UHGV virus genome: UHGV-0183838
Length of the DNA stretch: 29,982 nt
Source: a virus
Strand: one strand, 5' to 3'
Position numbers and translations under genes: made by a program. Position 1 is the first letter of the stretch; every line of letters starts with the position of its first letter. Positions 1,825 through 19,587 of the stretch are shown here, one piece after another. Below the pieces are notes generated by a model that saw only the letters and a list, made by a program, of their open reading frames with translations, was not told the DNA's origin and did no database searches.

Positions 1825-2074
1825 CAGCTTGCGTAGCCCTGACAGTCTGTTTTGAGCGAACAGTGGACATTTTCAATGGCATTCTTGAGTAGGTTACGCT
1901 TAGACCAGAAGTAAGAGGTGATAGAATTATCAACAATACATAAAACATAGGGGATCCTTATTGATTTATTGATCTTGACCAACTTATGTGATGCAGTATG
2001 TCTTTAACTTGTATTACTATTATCTTTATCTTGTTGTTTCTAATAAACTTATCTTATTTCAGAAAGGAGTTTTT

Positions 2075-3775
2075 ATGCATTTAGTCACGAAATCTTATTT
2101 CGATGCCTTTTGCAAAGCATTCGCTGCGCCCTATGAGGAGACCAAAAATTTTGAGGCGTTTGTGAACTATTGTGCTTTTTCAAAATACTCAGGCGACAAA
2201 GTTGAGGTCAGTGATCTTGTGTATGAAGGCCCGGACCCTGGTATTGATGGCGCATTTTTATTTTTAGACGACAGAGCCATTTTTTCAACTGAAGAACTTC
2301 AGGAGATTTTCCAAAACTCACGTCGCGAGTTTCAAGTTTCATTAATATTCACGCAAGCTAAGTCATCGGAGAAGTGGAGCAAACAGGAAATAGACTCTTA
2401 CATTGCGTCAATAAGAGATTATCTTTCACCAGCGCCACAACAACCCCACAGTGAATATCTAGCGGACTTTAAAAAAATGTTCAACTTGATATTTGCTAAT
2501 ATCGGCAGAGTCAAAAATGGCCTTCCAGACTTATACGCATATTTTTTTAGTGCTGCACAAAATACAGAGGCCAGAGAAATAAAAGCTGCATTTGCATCGG
2601 GTGAAAAAAGCTTAAAGTCACTCGGGTTTTCACATGAAACATCCTTCATTATGGCTCACAAAGACATGATTCATGAGCTTTGGCTTGCTGCGGAAGGTCC
2701 AATAGAAGCTAAACTTCCTACAATAGGCTATGCTCCATTCCCAGCGGCCCCTAATATTAATAATGCCTATGTAGCTACAGTCAAAGCTCGTAGTTTTATT
2801 GATTCTATACTTAAAGACAAAAATGGAAACCCTCGAAAAAAATTATTCGAAGAAAATGTTAGAGATTTTCTGGGAATTGATGGTGACGTAAATTCAGAAA
2901 TTGCAGGAACACTAGATACTGATGGAAAAAAAGCAAGATTTGGTTTAATGAATAATGGAGTGACAATAGTTGCATCAAGCGTGAGGCCTGCAGGGCAAGA
3001 AATTTTTATACGAGATTTTCAAATTGTTAATGGATGTCAAACGTCTAATGTTCTTATATCAAAAGACATTCAAGTAGATGAATCAGTTAGTTTAATGATT
3101 AAATTAATTGAAACCGATGAGCCAGCGATCCTTGATGACATTGTACGAGCTACGAATAGACAATCTAAAGTTGAAGATGCACAGTTCATTTCAACGCTAA
3201 AAAAATTAAGGGAATTAGAGCATTATTTTAATGCTAAAGGTGCTATTGAAGGAAATAAAATTTATTTTGAGAGAAGAAAGGGGCAGTATAGTTCAGAAAG
3301 TATAGCTCCAGTACGCATATTTGATATCAGAGAAGTTGCGCGAGCATATGCTGCTATTGTTATGATGAGACCAGATTATTCCAGTCGTTATCCAAATAGG
3401 TTAACTGGTGACTTACTTAATGAGGTTTTCTCTTCCGATGCCCTCGAGGATGATTATTATATATCTTGCTATTGCTTGTATAGGCTAAAGGCTCTTATCT
3501 CAAATAAGAGGTTTGATGGGAAGTATTCAAAATTACGCTGGCATATTCTAACTGCTGCGTCAAAATACTGTGGTAATAATTATAAGGTTTGGGGGTTCAA
3601 AAATAAAAATGAAGCTCTTCATAACTTATTCTCAATGAATGATGGGGAGTGGTTTGAAAAACTTGAGAGTTTAGTAAAAATAGCTATACCAGATCCGGAT
3701 ATTTCTCGAGACTTACTAAAGTCGCAGCCTTTAACATCAACGATTCTCAAAAGTGTTGATAGCGTACCTAAATAA
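2075..3775 (+). CDS. AIPR-like (abortive infection phage resistance family) protein, candidate anti-phage defense cargo
   Basis: 566 aa from ATG 2075 with SD AAAGGAG at 2063-2069 (the track ORF starts upstream at 1988). Contains the motif FQIVNGCQTSNVLI, which I recall as the conserved NGxQT signature of AIPR proteins. The gene is strikingly AT-rich compared with flanking phage genes and sits between int and xis. Confidence 0.6.
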   Translation: MHLVTKSYFDAFCKAFAAPYEETKNFEAFVNYCAFSKYSGDKVEVSDLVYEGPDPGIDGAFLFLDDRAIFSTEELQEIFQNSRREFQVSLIFTQAKSSEKWSKQEIDSYIASIRDYLSPAPQQPHSEYLADFKKMFNLIFANIGRVKNGLPDLYAYFFSAAQNTEAREIKAAFASGEKSLKSLGFSHETSFIMAHKDMIHELWLAAEGPIEAKLPTIGYAPFPAAPNINNAYVATVKARSFIDSILKDKNGNPRKKLFEENVRDFLGIDGDVNSEIAGTLDTDGKKARFGLMNNGVTIVASSVRPAGQEIFIRDFQIVNGCQTSNVLISKDIQVDESVSLMIKLIETDEPAILDDIVRATNRQSKVEDAQFISTLKKLRELEHYFNAKGAIEGNKIYFERRKGQYSSESIAPVRIFDIREVARAYAAIVMMRPDYSSRYPNRLTGDLLNEVFSSDALEDDYYISCYCLYRLKALISNKRFDGKYSKLRWHILTAASKYCGNNYKVWGFKNKNEALHNLFSMNDGEWFEKLESLVKIAIPDPDISRDLLKSQPLTSTILKSVDSVPK

Positions 3776-6670: not shown

Positions 6671-6735
6671 AATAAGTCCTCACTATATAAAGATATTCAG
6701 TGATGAGATAAATAATCGGTTAATTAAGAACGATA

Positions 6736-7820: not shown

Positions 7821-8513
7821 TTAATTGTGTCGCTTAAGGGTTTGTGACTGGCTGATTAAGACCTTTCCAAAGACCATAAACCGGTGTTCATTTTCGCTGG
7901 TAATTCCCCATTCACGGTAAATCTGGTTATCAGAAATCACCAGTAGTTTGTCAGGTATCATTTGCAGTCGTTTGACATAAATTTTATCATCAAAACCAAA
8001 TACATAGATACCATCTCCATCAAACTGATTGATACTGACATCAACGAAGATGAGATCTCCTGGCTCAATGGTTGGACACATACTGTCCCCACGAACGTTG
8101 ATAACTTTAATGTGATTGGCTGGCCGTCCGCCAAACATCGATACAGCATTATCAGTTCTGTATTCAATGGCATGAATCACATCAATGACATCACCGCCCT
8201 GGATAAGGCCATTTCCCGCACTGGCACTGACATCCAGCATTTCAATACGGAATACATCCTTCACCTGCGCAACATCCTCACTAATACTGTTTTTACATAC
8301 AGTATTACTTTTGAAGTCTGAGGTAAAGAGATCAGCAATATCAACACCTAAGCTCCTGGCAATATTACTCAGGGCTTGTTCAGTGAATTGTTTCTGCTTA
8401 CCTGTTTCCAGGCGTGAGATATTCGCCGCATCCACTCCTATTGCTTCAGCGAGATCGGCGATTTTCATGTTCTTCGCCTGGCGAAGTTGTCTGACTCGGT
8501 TTCCTATGTTCAT
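7821..8513 (-). CDS. cI: CI-like prophage repressor (XRE-type HTH plus S24 LexA-like autopeptidase domain)
   Basis: 230 aa; N-terminal HTH (IADLAEAIGVDAANISRLETGK), C-terminal S24 motifs (GDSMCPTI, KRL); divergent from a Cro-like gene. Confidence 0.9.
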   Translation of the reverse strand: MNIGNRVRQLRQAKNMKIADLAEAIGVDAANISRLETGKQKQFTEQALSNIARSLGVDIADLFTSDFKSNTVCKNSISEDVAQVKDVFRIEMLDVSASAGNGLIQGGDVIDVIHAIEYRTDNAVSMFGGRPANHIKVINVRGDSMCPTIEPGDLIFVDVSINQFDGDGIYVFGFDDKIYVKRLQMIPDKLLVISDNQIYREWGITSENEHRFMVFGKVLISQSQTLKRHN

Positions 8514-10688: not shown

Positions 10689-11177
10689 ATGAGTCTTTTG
10701 AATGACGTTCAGAAATTCATTGAAGCCCATCCGGGCTGTACTTCCGGAGACATTGCAGATGCTTTTGCTGGTTACTCACGGCAGCGCGTTCTGCAGTCAG
10801 CAAGCAAGTTACGTCAGAGTGGGCGTGTGGCTCACCGTTGTGAAGGAGATACACGCAGACATTTCCCGCGCCTGACTGAGAGAGCGCAGGAGCCGGAACC
10901 ACAATCTGTTCGTGAAACCAGACCTGTGCGCAATTTCTATGTCGGCACTAACGACCCCCGGGTGATTTTGTGCCTGACCCGCCAGGCTGAAGAACTGGAG
11001 TCCAGGGGCTTATTCCGTCGAGCTGCAACGGTGTGGATGGCGGCATTCCGTGAAAGCCACTCCCAGCCAGAACGAAACAATTTTCTGGCGCATCGTGAGC
11101 GGTGCTTACGGAAAAGCAGCAAGCGCGCTGCATCGGGTGAAGAGTGGTATCTGTCAGGGAATTACGTGGGGGCTTAA
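10689..11177 (+). CDS. Hypothetical phage protein, possible regulator (C-terminal region reminiscent of PerC/Pch-type proteins; unverified)
   Basis: 163 aa from ATG 10689; C-terminal segment LESRGLFRRAATVWMAAFRES...ERNNFLAHRERCLRK. The PerC-like resemblance is recalled, not searched. Confidence 0.45.
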   Translation: MSLLNDVQKFIEAHPGCTSGDIADAFAGYSRQRVLQSASKLRQSGRVAHRCEGDTRRHFPRLTERAQEPEPQSVRETRPVRNFYVGTNDPRVILCLTRQAEELESRGLFRRAATVWMAAFRESHSQPERNNFLAHRERCLRKSSKRAASGEEWYLSGNYVGA

Positions 11178-11830
11178 TGAGTAATAAATATTGCCAGGCG
11201 CTGGTGGAGCTGCGGAACAAACCAGCCCATGAACTGAAGGAAGTGGGCGATCAGTGGCGCACGCCGGACAACATTTTCTGGGGAATTAACACCCTGTTTG
11301 GCCCGTTTGTTCTGGATCTGTTTACTGATGGTGATAACGCCAAATGTGCCGCTTATTACACTGCGGAAGACAACGCGCTGGCGCATGACTGGTCAGAACG
11401 TCTTGCGGAGCTTAAAGGTGCTGCCTTTGGTAATCCCCCGTACAGCCGCGCCAGTCAGCATGAGGGGCAATACATCACCGGCATGCGTTACATCATGAAA
11501 CATGCCAGTGCTATGCGTGATAAAGGCGGGCGCTATGTTTTCCTGATCAAAGCTGCCACCAGCGAAGTGTGGTGGCCGGAAGATGCAGACCATATTGCTT
11601 TTATTCGCGGGCGTATTGGTTTTGAACTGCCTGCCTGGTTTATCCCGAAGGATGAGAAGCAGGTGCCGACAGGCGCTTTCTTCGCTGGTGCTATTGCTGT
11701 TTTCGACAAGACCTGGAAGGGACCGGCAATCAGCTACATCGGGCGCGATGAACTTGAGGCATGTGGTGAGGCGTTTCTGGCGCAGGTTCGCCAGCAGGCG
11801 GAAAAACTGGTCAGGGAGATGGCGGCATGA
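11177..11830 (+). CDS. Phage DNA N6-adenine methyltransferase (Dam-type, orphan)
   Basis: 217 aa from ATG 11177 (TAATG overlap with upstream stop); catalytic NPPY motif (AAFGNPPYSRA); no adjacent restriction endonuclease gene. Confidence 0.85.
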   Translation: MSNKYCQALVELRNKPAHELKEVGDQWRTPDNIFWGINTLFGPFVLDLFTDGDNAKCAAYYTAEDNALAHDWSERLAELKGAAFGNPPYSRASQHEGQYITGMRYIMKHASAMRDKGGRYVFLIKAATSEVWWPEDADHIAFIRGRIGFELPAWFIPKDEKQVPTGAFFAGAIAVFDKTWKGPAISYIGRDELEACGEAFLAQVRQQAEKLVREMAA

Positions 11831-12153
11831 CGACGTTAACTCAATGCCAGCAGCAGGTGCTGGATATGCTGATTTCTTATCAGAAAGAACGTGGCTTCCC
11901 GCCAACCAATCAGGAGGTGGCAACCATGCTGGGATACCGTTCAGTGAATGCAGCGGTGGAGCATCTTCGCGCACTGGAGAAAAAAGGCGTCATCACGATA
12001 AAGCGTGGTGTGGCCCGGGGGATCACGCTTCATACCGTGGTGAAGGACGACGACAGCGAGGCGGTCGGGATTATCCGCTCACTGCTTGCCGGTGAGGAAA
12101 ACGCCAGGCTGCGTGCAGCCCATTGGTTACATGAGAGAGGCCTGAAAGTATGA
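11827..12153 (+). CDS. LexA DNA-binding-domain-only protein (no S24 peptidase domain)
   Basis: 108 aa; N-terminal ~70 residues (QQQVLDMLISYQKERGFPPTNQEVATMLGYRSVNAAVEHLRALEKKGVITIKRGVARGITL) closely resemble the LexA N-terminal winged-helix domain; ATGA overlaps at both ends couple it to the methyltransferase and RusA genes. Confidence 0.7.
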   Translation: MTTLTQCQQQVLDMLISYQKERGFPPTNQEVATMLGYRSVNAAVEHLRALEKKGVITIKRGVARGITLHTVVKDDDSEAVGIIRSLLAGEENARLRAAHWLHERGLKV

Positions 12154-12545
12154 AGCTGCTCCTGCCTTTTCCGCCCAGCGTGAACACGTACTGGCGACAC
12201 CCCAACAAAGGGGCGTTTGCTGGTAAGAGCCTGATAAGCGCGGCGGGGCGAAAATTCCAGAGCGCGGCGTGTGCAGCAATAGTTGAGCAGTTACGTCGTC
12301 TGCCGAAACCAACGTCGGCACCTGCTTCAGTGGAGATCGTGTTGTTTCCTCCGGATAACCGGATCCGCGATCTGGACAACTATAACAAGGCGCTGTTTGA
12401 CGCCCTGACCCACGCGGGTGTGTGGGAAGACGACAGTCAGGTGAAAAGAATGCTGGTGGAGTGGGGACCGGTTATCCCGGAGGGGAAGGTCGAGATCACT
12501 ATCAGTAAGTACGAAAAAGCGAGTTGCAAATTAGCAACTCGGTAA
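12150..12545 (+). CDS. rusA: RusA-family Holliday junction resolvase
   Basis: 131 aa with the RusA pattern (FPPSVNTYWRH ... DLDNYNKALFDALT); typical nin-region location. Confidence 0.85.
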   Translation: MKLLLPFPPSVNTYWRHPNKGAFAGKSLISAAGRKFQSAACAAIVEQLRRLPKPTSAPASVEIVLFPPDNRIRDLDNYNKALFDALTHAGVWEDDSQVKRMLVEWGPVIPEGKVEITISKYEKASCKLATR

Positions 12546-12590
12546 CGGAATTGAGCAACACCCTAAATTTGGGTATTACCTCGTTAAAGA

Positions 12591-12610
12591 TACTGTATTT
12601 ATGAACAGTG
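12591..12610. promoter_or_regulatory. Consensus LexA (SOS) box upstream of the KilA-N gene
   Basis: TACTGTATTTATGAACAGTG matches CTGT-N8-ACAG (CTGT at 12593-12596, ACAG at 12605-12608) in the intergenic region about 100 bp upstream of the ATG at 12708. Confidence 0.6.
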
Positions 12611-12707
12611 TATCCTTGATAACTATTAAAAATCGCAGTAAGTTCATCCGGCATCAACGAAAAGGGAGTGCAGTCCCGCTCGTGGATAAAAATTTGTGGA
12701 GAAACCA

Positions 12708-13523
12708 ATGAATCAGTTGCTTGTAATTGATGGCGTTTCTGTGCGCCAGTACTTCGAATCTAACTACTGTCTTAACGACCTTCAGAAAGCTGCTCTTCTT
12801 GCCGCTGGTGAGAATCGCTCCTCCCGTTCGCTGGAAGTTCACGAGTTTATGCGTCGTCCTGAAACGAAGGCTCTTGTGGAATTATTGGAAGAAGAAACTA
12901 CGGGAGATTCCCGTAGTATTCCTGTCATCACCATTCAGGGGCGCAATGGTGGGACGTATGTCTGTAAAGAGCTGGTCTATGCATATGCAATGTGGATCAG
13001 CCCGGCATTCAGCTTAAAAGTGATACGTACTTTTGATGCGCTTCATAATTCATCACCAGAAGAAACCACATCCGACAAAATTAAATCCGGGGTCATTCTG
13101 CTTGAATCAGCAGCAAAGACTCTAAATCTGTCAAACTCCTCGAAACTTGGTGCATACCAGAAATTATCAAAGGTAGCTGGTCTTCCTGAACTTATGCCGA
13201 TCTATGCCATTGATGCACCTGCTGATGCGCCAGATGGTTCAAGCCGCCCTACGCTGTCGCTGAGTGCACTGCTGAAGCAGTATGGTATCCGCCTGACGGC
13301 TAATCAGGCATATCACCAGATGGCGAAGCTGGGGATCGTTGAACAACGCGAACGATACAGCCGTACCGCGATTAACAACATCAAAAAATTCTGGTCGCTG
13401 ACGGCGAAAGGCTGCATGTTCGGCAAGAACATCACCAGTCCTGCAAATCCGCGCGAGACGCAGCCGCATTTCTTCGAATCCCGATTCCCTGAGCTGTTAA
13501 AGCTGCTCGATACCGTTCATTGA
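12708..13523 (+). CDS. KilA-N domain protein, putative SOS-controlled antirepressor
   Basis: 271 aa from ATG 12708; N-terminal KilA-N-like segment (GTYVCKELVYAYAMWISPAFSLKVIRTFD); preceded by a LexA box. Confidence 0.65.
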   Translation: MNQLLVIDGVSVRQYFESNYCLNDLQKAALLAAGENRSSRSLEVHEFMRRPETKALVELLEEETTGDSRSIPVITIQGRNGGTYVCKELVYAYAMWISPAFSLKVIRTFDALHNSSPEETTSDKIKSGVILLESAAKTLNLSNSSKLGAYQKLSKVAGLPELMPIYAIDAPADAPDGSSRPTLSLSALLKQYGIRLTANQAYHQMAKLGIVEQRERYSRTAINNIKKFWSLTAKGCMFGKNITSPANPRETQPHFFESRFPELLKLLDTVH

Positions 13524-13524
13524 G

Positions 13525-14520
13525 GTGACCGTGAGAGCACTACTGACCCCTGAAATTGCCCCGCGTATGGGGATCGTATTGTTCAGACCAGGTTCAGAGC
13601 TGATGCCCCTGTTTATGCAGGGGCGTGTACTGCTGGAGCCTGAGCCGGAACGTTATTCATCTTTCGCCAGTGGTGCCGTTCCCGCGGCATCACAACCGCT
13701 GGCGGATGATCCTGCTGTTCGGGCCGTGTTCCGCAATGAGGCAGTGATCCGTCGTGCTGGTGGCGTGGAATGTCTTGAAAGCTGGTTACTTCGTGAAAAA
13801 GGCTGCCAGTGGCCTCATTCCGACTGGCACAGCGAGAACATGACCACAATGCGACACGCTCCGGGCGCAATCCGTCTGTGCTGGCACTGTGATAACCAGC
13901 TGCGCGATCAGTTCACGGAACGGCTGGAATCAATGGCAACGTATAACTGTGCCCGCTGGGTGTTGTCTGTTGTGCGTCGGGATCTCGGTTTTGATGATAG
14001 TCACGTTGTGACAATGCCGGAACTGTGCTGGTGGCTGATTCGTAATGACCTGGCGGATGCCTTACCGGAAAGTGCAGCCCGTAAGGCACTGAGATTACCA
14101 AAGCCTGTTGTGCCGTCTGTCACCCGGGAAAGTGACCTTGTGCCTTCGGTTCCTGCCACCAGCATCATCCAGGATAAGGCAAAAAAGGTGCTGGCGCTGA
14201 AAGTGGATCCGGAGTCGCCGGAGTCTTTTATGTTACGCCCAAAACGTCGCCGCTGGGTTAATGAAAAGTACACGCGCTGGGTTAAGACACAGCCGTGTGC
14301 ATGTTGTGGAAAGCCTGCTGATGATCCCCACCACCTGATAGGTCACGGTCAGGGTGGAATGGGAACAAAAGCGCATGACCTCTTTGTGTTGCCTTTGTGC
14401 AGAAAGCATCACGACGAGCTGCATGCGGATACCGTGGCATTTGAAGAGAAGTATGGCTCCCAGCTGGAGCTGATATTTCGTTTTATCGATCGTGCGCTGG
14501 CAACAGGCGTACTGGCGTAA
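13525..14520 (+). CDS. DUF968-like phage protein with C-terminal Cys/His (HNH-like) motif
   Basis: 331 aa; C-terminal CACCGK...HHLIGHG...LPLCRKHH; typical nin-region gene. Exact start is uncertain (GTG at 13525 or a downstream codon). Confidence 0.65.
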   Translation: MTVRALLTPEIAPRMGIVLFRPGSELMPLFMQGRVLLEPEPERYSSFASGAVPAASQPLADDPAVRAVFRNEAVIRRAGGVECLESWLLREKGCQWPHSDWHSENMTTMRHAPGAIRLCWHCDNQLRDQFTERLESMATYNCARWVLSVVRRDLGFDDSHVVTMPELCWWLIRNDLADALPESAARKALRLPKPVVPSVTRESDLVPSVPATSIIQDKAKKVLALKVDPESPESFMLRPKRRRWVNEKYTRWVKTQPCACCGKPADDPHHLIGHGQGGMGTKAHDLFVLPLCRKHHDELHADTVAFEEKYGSQLELIFRFIDRALATGVLA

Positions 14521-14533
14521 GTGGAGAACGAGC

Positions 14534-15286
14534 ATGAACCTTGAAGCCTTACCAAAATATTACTCCCCAAAATCTCCAAAATTGAGTGATGACGCACCGG
14601 CGACAGGCTCGGGTGGTTTAACGATTACGGATGTGATGGCTGCGCAGGGGATGGTGCAGTCGAAAGCACCACTGGGTTTTGCCTTATTCTTGGCAAAAGT
14701 TGGTGTTCAGGATCCTCAGTTTGCGATTGAAGGTCTGCTCAATTACGCGATGGCACTGGATAACCCGACATTGAATAAATTGAGTGAAGAAATCCGGTTA
14801 CAGATCATCCCTTACCTTGTGAATTTTGCCTTTGCTGATTATTCCAGGTCTGCGGCAAGTAAGGCTCGCTGTGAGCATTGTGCAGGTACTGGATTTCATA
14901 ATGTATTGCGCGAAGTGGTGAAACACTCCAGAAGCGGGGAATCTGTTATCAAGGAAGAGTGGGTGAAGGAACTATGTCAGCATTGCCATGGTAAGGGAGA
15001 AGTCAGCACAGCGTGCAGAGGGTGTAAGGGTAAAGGTATTGTCCTGGATGAAAAAAGGACCCGGCTTCATGGCGCGCCTGTTTATAAGATTTGTGGGCGT
15101 TGCAATGGAAACCGGTTTAGTCGTTTACCAACGACACTGGCGCGGTGTCATGTCCAGAAGCTGGTACCAGCCCTGACTGATTATCAGTGGTACAAAGGAT
15201 ATGCAGATGTCATTGATAAACTGGTTACAAAGTGCTGGCAGGAAGAAGCATATGCTGAGGTGCAATTAAGAAAAGTGACGAGATAA
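14534..15286 (+). CDS. Late-gene antiterminator Q (QuuQ-like, zinc-finger type)
   Basis: 250 aa from ATG 14534 (GGAGAA RBS); four CxxCxGxG zinc-finger-like repeats; located immediately before a strong promoter plus terminator and the lysis genes. Confidence 0.65.
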   Translation: MNLEALPKYYSPKSPKLSDDAPATGSGGLTITDVMAAQGMVQSKAPLGFALFLAKVGVQDPQFAIEGLLNYAMALDNPTLNKLSEEIRLQIIPYLVNFAFADYSRSAASKARCEHCAGTGFHNVLREVVKHSRSGESVIKEEWVKELCQHCHGKGEVSTACRGCKGKGIVLDEKRTRLHGAPVYKICGRCNGNRFSRLPTTLARCHVQKLVPALTDYQWYKGYADVIDKLVTKCWQEEAYAEVQLRKVTR

Positions 15287-15317: not shown

Positions 15318-15346
15318 TTGCATTTTTCAAAAAATATGGATAAAAT
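15318..15346 (+). promoter_or_regulatory. Candidate late promoter (pR-prime-like)
   Basis: TTGCAT (15318-15323), 17-nt spacer, TAAAAT (15341-15346), directly downstream of Q. Confidence 0.45.
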
Positions 15347-15921: not shown

Positions 15922-16221
15922 AAAAATTCCTTAATACTGATAACTGGGCGCACTATACACACCTTCCTGAAGAAAGCTATAGTTTTTTGATGGGGTTGAA
16001 GATGGCTGGATGTCTAAAATAAACATTGCTTCATATGTTCAACTATGCGTTAATGATTGCGTCGGTTTGAAGAACAGACGATATACGAAGTAGTTTACTA
16101 AAGCAGTTCTCATTTCAGGTGTTATTCACTTATTCCTTCTTTGAGTCTCTCCAATTAAGTACGAAGTCGTTTCTGTTATACAAGCCATTTATGCCGAAAG
16201 GCTCAAGTTAAGGAATGTAGA

Positions 16222-16437
16222 ATGTCAAATAAAATGACTGGTTTAGTAAAATGGTTTAACGCTGATAAAGGTTTTGGCTTTATTTCTCCTGTTGATGGTA
16301 GTAAAGATGTGTTTGTGCATTTTTCTGCGATTCAGAATGATAATTTTCGAACCTTATTTGAAGGTCAAAAGGTTACCTTCTCTGTAGAGAGTGGTGCTAA
16401 AGGTCCTGCAGCAGCAAATGTCATAATTACTGATTAA
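16222..16437 (+). CDS. cspB: Cold-shock protein CspB-like
   Basis: 71 aa; [53 protein letters not shown]... carries canonical CspA-family motifs; divergent from the CspF/H-like gene. Confidence 0.85.
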
Positions 16438-16719
16438 AATTCATAGTTTGTCTGTATACGATAACGAAGAAGGCTGATGCCTGAGTGGAGATACAGACAG
16501 AGTGGTGAATATTGGATCTCTTTAATAAATAGTAAGGAGGTCCAATACATGAAACAATGGCCAGCATATTTGGCAATAACTTAATCAGGAAAAGTATGCT
16601 AACCATTGTGGTGAAGTGCAGGTTTGCTGCATGAATAGTTTTACAGCAGAAGCTAACTGCTGGCATAGCAAAACAAAGTGCGTAAGTGGATGACTCCCAC
16701 AAAAAGCACCACAATATTA

Positions 16720-18807: not shown

Positions 18808-19169
18808 GGTAATATTAAATCGGAACATTTACATCGCGGAATGTAAAATTTAAATAAAAAGGACTCTTCCATGAGCCAAAATTCCTGAAATCTTAAGGGT
18901 AAGATAAAAGGTCTTAATCAGAATGACACGTTTTATTAATAAATAAAGCTATTCTTTCATTGCTGTGTTTTTCTTTACAAAAGTAATCCTTGCTATGGGT
19001 GGTTAATCATGAGTTAATGGTGTTCTGGTTTGTTACAAATTTATCTGAAGCAGTCATTGTTATAATTTTATTATTTGTACCTCTTGAGATTTCCTTGTTG
19101 GTTTTTCTCTCTGATATTTTTTTTCGGACCATTCTGCCCAAGGGCTAATTTCTTCAAAAGGTAATAATT

Positions 19170-19382
19170 ATGTCTAACAAAATGACTGGTTTAGTGAAAT
19201 GGTTTAACCCTGAAAAAGGTTTTGGTTTCATCACGCCGAAAGATGGCAGCAAAGATGTGTTTGTCCATTTCTCAGCAATTCAGAGCAACGATTTCAAAAC
19301 ATTAACTGAGAATCAGGAAGTTGAATTTGGTATTGAGAACGGACCTAAAGGTCCTGCCGCTGTTCATGTAGTGGCGCTTTGA
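19170..19382 (+). CDS. cspI: Cold-shock protein CspI-like
   Basis: 70 aa; [53 protein letters not shown]...; preceded by a long ~360-bp AT-rich leader as is typical for csp genes. Confidence 0.85.
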
Positions 19383-19587
19383 GGTAGACAATATTACAAA
19401 CCATATTCACTTTAGATGCCCGTGTTGTCATGGTTCCCAGTATAGAACATCATCTTTTGATGTTTCTGACATGAATCCTTTCGGGGCAAAATGTATCTTT
19501 TGTAAATCAATGATGATTACATTTGATAATATTTCACAATACTTAAATGTTAGCCATCTGTCGTTAGATTTAAGAAAGTGAAAATGA

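Follow-up and report, generated by a model that had tools for sequence, protein, structure and literature searches.

A putative LexA operator in front of a kilA-N gene and an independently distributed LexA DNA-binding-domain protein in an SfIV-like prophage of Escherichia coli

Gene organization of the locus

The stretch of viral DNA analyzed here, UHGV virus genome UHGV-0183838 (29,982 nt; this whole stretch is henceforth the window, and all coordinates are given on it), is a lambdoid prophage of E. coli of the SfIV/mEp460-like type. Its early right region combines two features reminiscent of the SOS response, namely a gene for a 108-residue protein resembling the DNA-binding domain (DBD) of LexA and a near-consensus LexA box in front of a gene coding for a KilA-N domain protein (Table 1). 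Shigella phage SfIV and Escherichia phage PhiR49_1 match this region at 99.0-99.6% identity, and a prophage in E. coli 2013C-4974 matches it at 100%. From the left end of the window the gene order comprises an integrase gene and an AIPR gene, leftward early genes, the cI repressor gene and a cII-like gene, followed by an O-like replication gene, a PerC-like gene, the Dam methylase gene (11144-11830), the LexA-DBD gene and rusA. A gap of 162 bp then separates rusA from kilA-N, a DUF968/HNH gene, the antiterminator gene Q, and a putative late promoter and terminator. An earlier reading of the same sequence, henceforth the original prediction, had joined the LexA-DBD gene, rusA, the SOS box and kilA-N into a single SOS-linked module, and the positions it gave for all four were confirmed.

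The SOS box in front of kilA-N

The LexA operator of gammaproteobacteria is a 20-bp palindrome of the type TACTGT(AT)4ACAGTA, with a CTGT-N8-ACAG core. The box TACTGTATTTATGAACAGTG, which sits in the 162-bp gap between rusA and kilA-N, shares 16 of its 20 positions with the consensus TACTGTATATATATACAGTA and has both the CTGT and the ACAG arm intact. With a 20-bp LexA weight matrix it scores 21.3 bits, the training sites themselves ranging from 12.9 to 25.8 bits, though the matrix, built from E. coli LexA sites, and hence these scores are approximate. The next-best chance site in the window reaches 10.7 bits and the maximum over 300 Markov shuffles is 17.9 bits, which bears out the original prediction in its claim of a near-consensus SOS box upstream of kilA-N. 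The approximate heterology index of the box is 4.8-6.0 (0.9-9.5 for the training sites), and CTGT-N8-ACAG occurs twice in the 30-kb window against an expectation of 0.36. A chance origin of a 21-bit site is very unlikely, and the box has every appearance of a bona fide LexA operator.

Of 5426 complete E. coli genomes, 186 have the 162-bp gap, which was also recovered in 5 phage records. Among 143 copies compared, 141 have the identical box, the other two ending in ...ACAGTA and thereby lying nearer to the consensus. Eight variants of the gap occur among 142 E. coli copies, all of which leave CTGT and ACAG untouched, and the sole change within the box, a G to A substitution of its last base in SfIV, is likewise towards the consensus. 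Diverged kilA-N alleles with 72-88% identity are found in Citrobacter, Kluyvera, Cedecea and Pantoea, whose loci preserve the order methylase-(LexA-DBD)-RusA-gap-KilA-N-DUF968-Q, the gaps measuring 90-105 bp. Weak relatives of the box at the same offset (13 bits in locus L143, 17 bits in L147 and 7 bits in Kluyvera) have only the right half in common with it. In the Kluyvera and L143 alleles this half, ATGAACAGTG, aligns with the end of rusA, its final codons and its stop codon, a homology which suggests that the box appears to have been born at a recombination joint, in the fossil of a rusA 3' end. The kilA-N box is thus strong but lineage-specific.

Two inverted repeats precede the box, and their properties raise a different possibility for its role. 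The first, spanning the last codons of rusA, is terminator-like on the minus strand only, with a T-run extending to ~12510, and the second pairs better as minus-strand than as plus-strand RNA by virtue of G:U pairs. The 117-nt RNA corresponding to 12508-12624 folds with -35.3 kcal/mol (z -5.4) on the minus strand, as three consecutive hairpins with a U-tract terminator at the end, versus -28.1 kcal/mol (z -2.9) on the plus strand, the difference of 7 kcal/mol being due to the G:U pairs. If transcription began at a weak promoter-like element on the minus strand (TTGATG-17-GATTTT), the box would fall at about +12 to +31, and the 3' end of rusA may give rise to a small antisense RNA under SOS control. 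We see a slim chance that the box actually serves such a minus-strand RNA of ~110 nt (from ~12622 to the terminator at 12541-12510), or that it is a non-functional by-product of recombination at the fossil rusA end. The strand of the sole U-tract terminator, the better fold and the placement of the box just past the promoter-like element speak for the former, and the homology of the right half to the ends of other rusA alleles for the latter. However, the minus-strand promoter is weak, with GATTTT as its -10 element, and the RNA has neither a match in Rfam nor the sequence variation from which covariation could be read, whereas a mere by-product sits poorly with the improbability of a 21-bit site arising by chance and with the only variant of the box being nearer to the consensus.

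The exact 20-mer of the box was also encountered in the IMG/VR contig L060 (2609460236_000001; 99-136), in a GC-rich and unrelated context, where two SOS boxes overlap beside an integrase gene and the 20-mer forms the second of them. These tandem boxes are probably a host SOS promoter at an attachment site, and we rejected the contig as a source of the module, the shared 20-mer being a coincidence of near-consensus sequence in an unrelated setting. Separately, the phage Stx2a_1447 carries an SOS box of 24.1 bits, AACTGGATATTTTTACAGTA, at 11072-11091 of its own sequence, at the start of an annotated DNA methylase gene and just upstream of tRNA genes and stx2A/B; this box is also present in three IMG/VR contigs.

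Predicted promoter, transcription unit and leader hairpin of kilA-N

Our position weight matrix (PWM) scan picked out a sigma-70 promoter-like element, TTGATA-17-TAAGTT, downstream of the box on the plus strand. With 11.6 bits it belongs to the top 8 of ~300,000 candidates in the window and equals in score the putative late promoter at 15318, just after Q. Transcription from it is predicted to start at ~12651, which puts the centre of the box at about -50 (the box extending from -41 to -60) and the end of the box 5 bp before the -35 element; in this position a bound protein could interfere with RNA polymerase or with its UP-element contacts. Promoter-like elements at the same offset, with the -10 ending 60-63 nt before the ATG, are seen in the Kluyvera, Cedecea and L145 alleles. 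Their presence in such diverged alleles suggests that this kilA-N subfamily probably has a promoter of its own, to which a LexA operator was added only in the E. coli allele. In Cedecea (loci L189/L190, 2912-2931) a 12-bp perfect palindrome, TGGTTATAACCA, within GTGGTTATAACCAG, separates the -35 from the -10 of the promoter-like element. Its half-sites are LexA-like but spaced by N6, and some different regulator could use it as an operator.

The ATG start codon of kilA-N is preceded by GGAG, the DUF968 gene begins 2 nt past the kilA-N stop codon, and Q in turn overlaps the DUF968 gene. No convincing plus-strand terminator was detected by the terminator scan between 12650 and 15286. As the three genes abut or overlap with no good terminator among them, a transcript from the element at 12616 should reach Q, and SOS-controlled, CI-independent transcription of a kilA-N-DUF968/HNH-Q unit is plausible on these grounds.

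A small hairpin in the leader, GGGA-GTGCAG-TCCC, lies 34 nt before the kilA-N start codon in the window and recurs 23-45 nt upstream of the kilA-N start in nearly all alleles (the window, Stx2a_1447 at 6693-6708, and loci L142-L191), overlapping the rusA stop codon in some of them. Its loop conforms to (G/U)UGCAG, of which UGCAG is invariant, and its stems covary, the pairs GGGA/TCCC, GGGG/CCCC, GGCGG/CCGCC, TCAT/ATGA and TCAC/GTGA being represented. Paired cells make up 83% of the stem alignment, and double-change cells number 24 versus 10.5 in shuffles, a count reached in 0 of 500. No Rfam match was obtained in the rusA-kilA-N gap, the leader hairpin included.

Architecture of the KilA-N protein and the antirepressor question

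The KilA-N protein comprises the KilA-N domain (residues 1-114), a helical segment (117-157), a disordered stretch (158-180) and, in the structural model, a winged-helix-like C-terminal domain (182-271) with no assigned family. Fold searches matched only the DNA-binding domain of Mbp1 and viral KilA-N proteins (KilA-N/APSES), and the C-terminal half did not match any Pfam family even at E values up to 10. The protein is nearly identical to the common allele over its C-terminal 155 residues, while its N-terminal 115 residues are those of a distinct allele and the DNA upstream differs as well.

The original prediction had taken kilA-N for a LexA-repressed antirepressor gene of the kind known from Gifsy (GfoA/GftA), 186 (Tum) and N15 (AntC), which would provide a second RecA-dependent input via CI. 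A plausible LexA operator with an adjacent predicted promoter does precede the gene, the position of the locus and the palindrome before the box recall the Gifsy LexA-controlled locus, and in some phage antirepressors a domain of DNA-binding type at the N-terminus is joined to an effector domain at the C-terminus. The identity of the protein as an antirepressor found no such backing. Scans with Pfam, NCBIfam and PHROGs gave no match to Tum/DinI, ANT/KilAC, AntA or Bro-N, and antirepressor homology was dropped as a candidate when fold searches against PDB and BFVD likewise returned nothing besides KilA-N. Moreover, CI has a complete S24 apparatus of its own, and in IMG/VR contigs the 100%-identical KilA-N/box allele lies beside S24-type immunity regions of at least four different kinds, which argues against a cognate repressor-antirepressor pair. 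Finally, ~94% of the E. coli occurrences are boxless and sit in a CI-repressed operon, where a self-directed antirepressor would be pointless. Taken together these points leave the antirepressor quite improbable.

We found no link between KilA-N and LexA control in the papers searched, and the only functionally studied bacterial KilA-N protein that we came across is BstA, which acts in abortive infection. This precedent raises the alternative that KilA-N is an SOS-switched effector of defence or directed against the host, comparable to BstA or to the lethal KilA of P1, and hence a damage-induced moron. Besides the KilA-N-like domain of the prophage-encoded BstA, this proposal can draw on the sole PADLOC match, with E 7.5e-10 to PDC-S22, a candidate family of defence proteins, on the promoter-like elements of several alleles, which suggest pR-independent expression, and on the conserved hairpin adjoining the gene. 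We nevertheless consider it unlikely, as the protein does not match the BstA model and has an unrelated C-terminal domain, the PADLOC match is limited to 56 residues of the common KilA-N core, and the gene is flanked by rusA and Q within the lytic operon, whereas bstA lies beside the repressor. On the available domain evidence KilA-N would be a two-domain DNA-binding protein acting in lytic development, with no recognizable antirepressor features.

The LexA-DBD-only protein

The Pfam LexA_DNA_bind match in the 108-residue protein covers residues 1-65, and no S24 domain was detected with Pfam. The score against the LexA model TIGR00498 is 71 bits, below its cutoff of 110.95. Compared with residues 1-70 of E. 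coli LexA, the protein aligns with residues 2-69 (PDB 1lea, E 7.5e-16), at 50-52% identity to LexA residues 1-69, and its AlphaFold model superimposes on the LexA-DNA complex 3jso with a root-mean-square deviation (rmsd) of 1.5 A over 67 residues at 51% identity. Sequence and fold thus agree with the original prediction that it is a LexA DBD devoid of the cleavable domain.

The winged helix-turn-helix (HTH) of residues 1-68, common to the whole family, is followed by a linker modelled with low confidence (69-74) and then by a conserved tail of two helices (75-103), which displays the pattern (D/E)EAVxxIRALLAGEExAxxRAxxWLxxRG in all family members and is conserved down to 39% identity. The tail is predicted to form a helix hairpin, with a predicted local distance difference test score (pLDDT) of 87-89, and resembles the helical dimerization extensions of MntR- and MarR-type winged HTH regulators, which appear lower in the fold-search list. 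By this resemblance the tail probably makes the protein a dimer. The segment LLAGEE within the tail aligns with the LexA cleavage region VAAGEP; it is predicted to be helical and its Ala-Gly is not conserved in the family, AN, AK and VG also occurring at this position. LexA dimerizes through its C-terminal domain (structures 1JHH/3JSO). Since this interface lies in the very domain that is missing here, the suggestion of the original prediction that the protein could form heterodimers with host LexA is unlikely to hold.

The DNA-contacting residues of LexA are Ser39, Asn41, Ala42, Glu44 and Glu45 (PMC3091678), and four of these five are retained, Ser39 and Asn41 being invariant in the family and Ala42 and Glu45 mostly kept. 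A separate operator for the protein was sought and discarded, as N8 is the only CTGT/ACAG spacing for which the window shows enrichment; apart from the two canonical boxes, no target for the protein is evident within the window. The gene overlaps the stop codon of the Dam gene with its start and the start codon of rusA with its stop, marking it as an early-operon gene that is silent in the lysogen.

The close family, with 64-100% identity, is confined to enterobacterial prophages of E. coli, Shigella, Citrobacter, Salmonella, Hafnia, Kluyvera and Cedecea, and more distant full-length relatives extend down to 39% identity. In the papers searched we found no functional study of this enterobacterial family but only catalogue entries, such as those in Stx-phage genomics papers, which list it as 'LexA family transcriptional regulator, pfam01726'. 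In a representative set of 1.84 billion proteins we further noticed many proteins (P0248, P0251, P0256 and others) with two LexA-DBD matches, or with the DBD only in 70-160 residues, and both tandem-DBD and LexA-DBD-only proteins may be widespread beyond this family.

A truncated LexA homologue, gp6, is known from the Bacillus tectivirus GIL01, where it recognizes a palindrome of its own and switches on a late promoter repressed by host LexA (Fornelos et al. 2018, PMC6182141). By analogy, the box might be the operator of the 108-residue protein acting as a delayed-early activator of kilA-N-DUF968-Q, with host LexA as its competitor. The activating site of gp6 overlaps the -35 element of a promoter that LexA also binds, and the 5-bp distance between the box and the -35 here would suit activation better than repression. 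We regard such an activator as hardly probable, since the box before kilA-N and Q is missing from most of the phages that carry the LexA-DBD gene, the gp6 palindrome is distinct from the LexA box whereas the present family keeps LexA-type contacts, and the predicted promoter is already strong on its own.

Independent distribution of the LexA-DBD cassette and the box

The LexA-DBD gene is present in 2233 of 5426 complete E. coli genomes (41%) and the KilA-N family in 2268 of them, as against 186 for the box allele, and the box accompanies only ~6% of the E. coli methylase-LexA-DBD-RusA cassettes. The cassette itself occurs with many immunity types, and throughout this phage group rusA directly follows the LexA-DBD gene, an arrangement seen in phage mEp390 as well as in E. 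coli, Citrobacter, Kluyvera and Cedecea. In most relatives, such as Stx2a_1447, SfII, SfV, mEp460, cdtI and the Stx2c phages, the LexA-DBD, RusA and KilA-N genes are all present, but the rusA-kilA-N gap is 19 bp and contains no box. Phage mEp390, conversely, has the order O-LexA-DBD-RusA-DUF968-Q with no KilA-N gene. These differing distributions and the mEp390 order show that the LexA-DBD gene belongs to a methylase-LexA-DBD-RusA cassette and the box to one allele of kilA-N. A dedicated SOS-linked module of the two, as originally proposed, finds no support in them. The original prediction as a whole is therefore partly supported: LexA control is plausible, and neither the antirepressor identity nor the dedicated module is supported.

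A second SOS box within cI and other features of the prophage

CI combines an HTH with a Peptidase_S24 domain in which the GDSM and KRL motifs and an Ala-Gly site are recognizable, in line with the S24 domain previously ascribed to it; with this complete cleavage apparatus CI is, judged by its motifs, cleavable. The cI gene also contains an SOS box that the original prediction did not mention, TACTGTTTTTACATACAGTA, which is stronger than the kilA-N box and occupies codons 70-77, within the linker that connects the HTH to the S24 domain. It is kept at 22-26 bits in the alleles of SfII, ST64B, 118970_sal3, Klebsiella phage 1 LV-2017 and Eeyore, whose cI genes range from 93% to ~70% nucleotide identity, and is thus conserved across genera. 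The residues that it encodes vary (NTVCKNS, NTVYKNS, TVCKHS, TVHINS, TVCKSS), and an indel lies 5 bp away. In all five alleles a -35-like TTTACC or TTTACA stands exactly 17 bp from TACTGT on the cI-sense strand. The cI allele of the window itself occurs in 1040 of 5426 E. coli genomes, and a survey of the Salmonella SOS regulon makes no mention of a cI-internal box. This box could mark a LexA-repressed internal promoter yielding a C-terminal fragment of CI, or could serve as a roadblock. An internal in-frame Met after the box was considered as the start of such a fragment and rejected, as it is not conserved, being Ile in ST64B.

Elsewhere in the prophage, a gene for an AIPR (abortive infection phage resistance) protein at 1988-3775 adjoins the integrase gene (601-1824) and is likely a defence moron. 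In the late region the cspA thermoregulator RNA (Rfam RF01766) is matched over its full length at both 16061-16500 and 19024-19409 (156 and 113 bits), which implies two cold-shock-protein morons.

Table 1. Positions of the genes and sequence elements discussed in the text, with the main evidence for each
Feature	Position	Strand	Properties and evidence
cI repressor gene	7821..8513	-	HTH + Peptidase_S24 domain
cI-internal SOS box TACTGTTTTTACATACAGTA	8285..8304	.	weight matrix, 24.2 bits
LexA-DBD-only gene	11827..12153	+	108 aa; Pfam LexA_DNA_bind 2.9e-19; PHROG 362
rusA, Holliday-junction resolvase gene	12150..12545	+	Pfam RusA 6.4e-15
8-bp inverted repeat spanning last rusA codons	12520..12541	.	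terminator scan, RNA folds
Second inverted repeat of the rusA/kilA-N gap	12554..12580	.	RNA folds
SOS (LexA) box TACTGTATTTATGAACAGTG	12591..12610	.	consensus match, weight matrix
Sigma-70 promoter-like element TTGATA-17-TAAGTT	12616..12644	+	PWM scan, 11.6 bits
Leader hairpin GGGA-GTGCAG-TCCC	12664..12677	+	stem covariation
kilA-N gene	12708..13523	+	271 aa; Pfam KilA-N 1.3e-15; PHROG 129
DUF968/HNH gene	13525..14520	+	Pfam DUF968 8e-81
Antiterminator Q gene	14492..15286	+	Pfam Antiterm 2.8e-52

Proposed role of the two elements

We infer LexA binding and promoter activity at the kilA-N box from the DNA sequence, and a role of the 108-residue protein as a surrogate repressor from its domain content, residue conservation and gene position. 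The reading that we favour, with a probability of roughly 0.45, combines an SOS-gated kilA-N-Q unit with an independent, RecA-insensitive paralogue of LexA. The region would then be a mosaic junction within the early-right (nin-type) operon, harbouring two mutually independent SOS-related elements. In the lysogen, host LexA bound to the box would hold down the adjacent sigma-70 promoter, and cleavage of LexA triggered by activated RecA would release a burst of KilA-N for which CI cleavage is not needed and which would proceed in parallel to it, with read-through probably giving Q a head start. The 108-residue protein, encoded in the CI-repressed early operon and translationally coupled to the methylase and RusA, would be made only after derepression or infection. 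Being uncleavable, it would most likely re-occupy CTGT-N8-ACAG operators after the loss of LexA, among them the host SOS promoters, the kilA-N promoter and the cI-internal box, so that SOS-dependent expression would be transient in lytic growth.

Several observations weigh against this reading. With regard to the gate in front of kilA-N, the promoter is solely a PWM prediction, and a stricter consensus promoter tool found none in the gap, omitting the element at 12616-12644 because only 8 of its 12 positions match. A box lying upstream of the -35 is atypical for repression by LexA, the operators of which usually overlap the -35, the -10 or +1. The strong box is absent from the Citrobacter, Kluyvera, Cedecea and Pantoea alleles, where the homologous site scores -0.6 to 7.3 bits, and is confined to essentially one near-clonal allele, for which reason its function cannot be footprinted phylogenetically; an attempt at such footprinting foundered on the closest non-E. 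coli alleles having no strong box and the E. coli copies being too uniform. With regard to the 108-residue protein, Glu44 is replaced in the whole family, and therefore its specificity may differ from that of LexA. The isolated N-terminal domain of LexA binds operators weakly, and the geometry of the dimer, itself a prediction only, might not fit the N8 spacing. Lastly, most phages with the LexA-DBD gene have no kilA-N box, and the ST64B, Klebsiella and Eeyore-type phages with the cI-internal box gave no LexA-DBD match in tblastn searches (E ≤ 0.001), and hence there is no co-occurrence signal tying the protein to phage boxes; a search for co-occurrence of the LexA-DBD gene with phage SOS boxes accordingly found none.

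A more far-reaching version, which we hold to be doubtful, would have the protein act as an uncleavable, self-dimerizing LexA surrogate, encoded by lambdoid prophages in ~40% of E. coli genomes, that in lytic growth, once host LexA is gone, re-represses the SOS regulon, including LexA-controlled genes of rival prophages and colicin plasmids, and that acts with LexA on both phage operators, namely the gate of kilA-N and Q and the cI-internal promoter or roadblock, which would tune the supply of repressor. [quoted passage not shown] A LexA-gated promoter upstream of Q would tie DNA damage to the late genes while bypassing CI, and the conserved LexA box inside cI, if functional, would add an input from host LexA to the textbook lysis-lysogeny circuit.

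Comparison with known systems

Both elements are of known kinds, the one belonging with LexA-controlled prophage genes and the other with truncated LexA homologues of phages. Among the former, the nearest loci are the dinI-antirepressor loci of the Gifsy prophages (Lemire et al. 2011, PMC3121763), 186 Tum and N15 AntC. In the Gifsy prophages the LexA box follows a palindrome downstream of the replication genes (PMC3121763), and the present locus likewise has a LexA box with a predicted promoter downstream of the replication genes of a lambdoid prophage, a palindrome before the box and, as proposed here, a CI-independent transcript triggered by the SOS response. However, dinI and a small antirepressor gene lie behind the Gifsy box, as opposed to a gene for a 271-residue KilA-N protein followed by DUF968 and Q, and the present locus further differs in having a repressor that is predicted to be cleavable, a box allele not tied to one immunity type and a box positioned upstream of the -35. 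With BstA and P1 KilA the KilA-N protein shares an N-terminal KilA-N domain in a prophage-encoded two-domain protein, but the C-terminal domains are unrelated, and the gene lies here between rusA and Q.

The 108-residue protein shares with host LexA the N-terminal winged HTH, with the identity and rmsd given above and with LLAGEE in place of VAAGEP, but differs in having neither the S24 catalytic domain (Ser119/Lys156) nor a conserved Ala-Gly, and in falling below the LexA equivalog cutoff. Its closest counterpart among characterized proteins is gp6 of GIL01, by description also essentially a LexA DBD without the catalytic domain, and also an early-gene product of a phage whose promoters have LexA boxes. 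Nevertheless, gp6 stops at the wing, whereas the present family adds a conserved helix-turn-helix tail of ~35 residues, and gp6 recognizes a palindrome of its own, whereas this family keeps four of the five LexA contacts with no separate palindrome found. The two also differ in host group and phage type, the present family being found in 41% of E. coli genomes. A more conceptual likeness exists to gp7 of GIL01, a co-repressor of LexA, and to AriS of Listeria phage, a precedent for phage interference with the SOS response (PMC9043618), as in each case a temperate phage limits or reshapes SOS expression. Both gp7 and AriS work through contacts with LexA or RecA, whereas the 108-residue protein, under our proposal, would occupy the operators directly.

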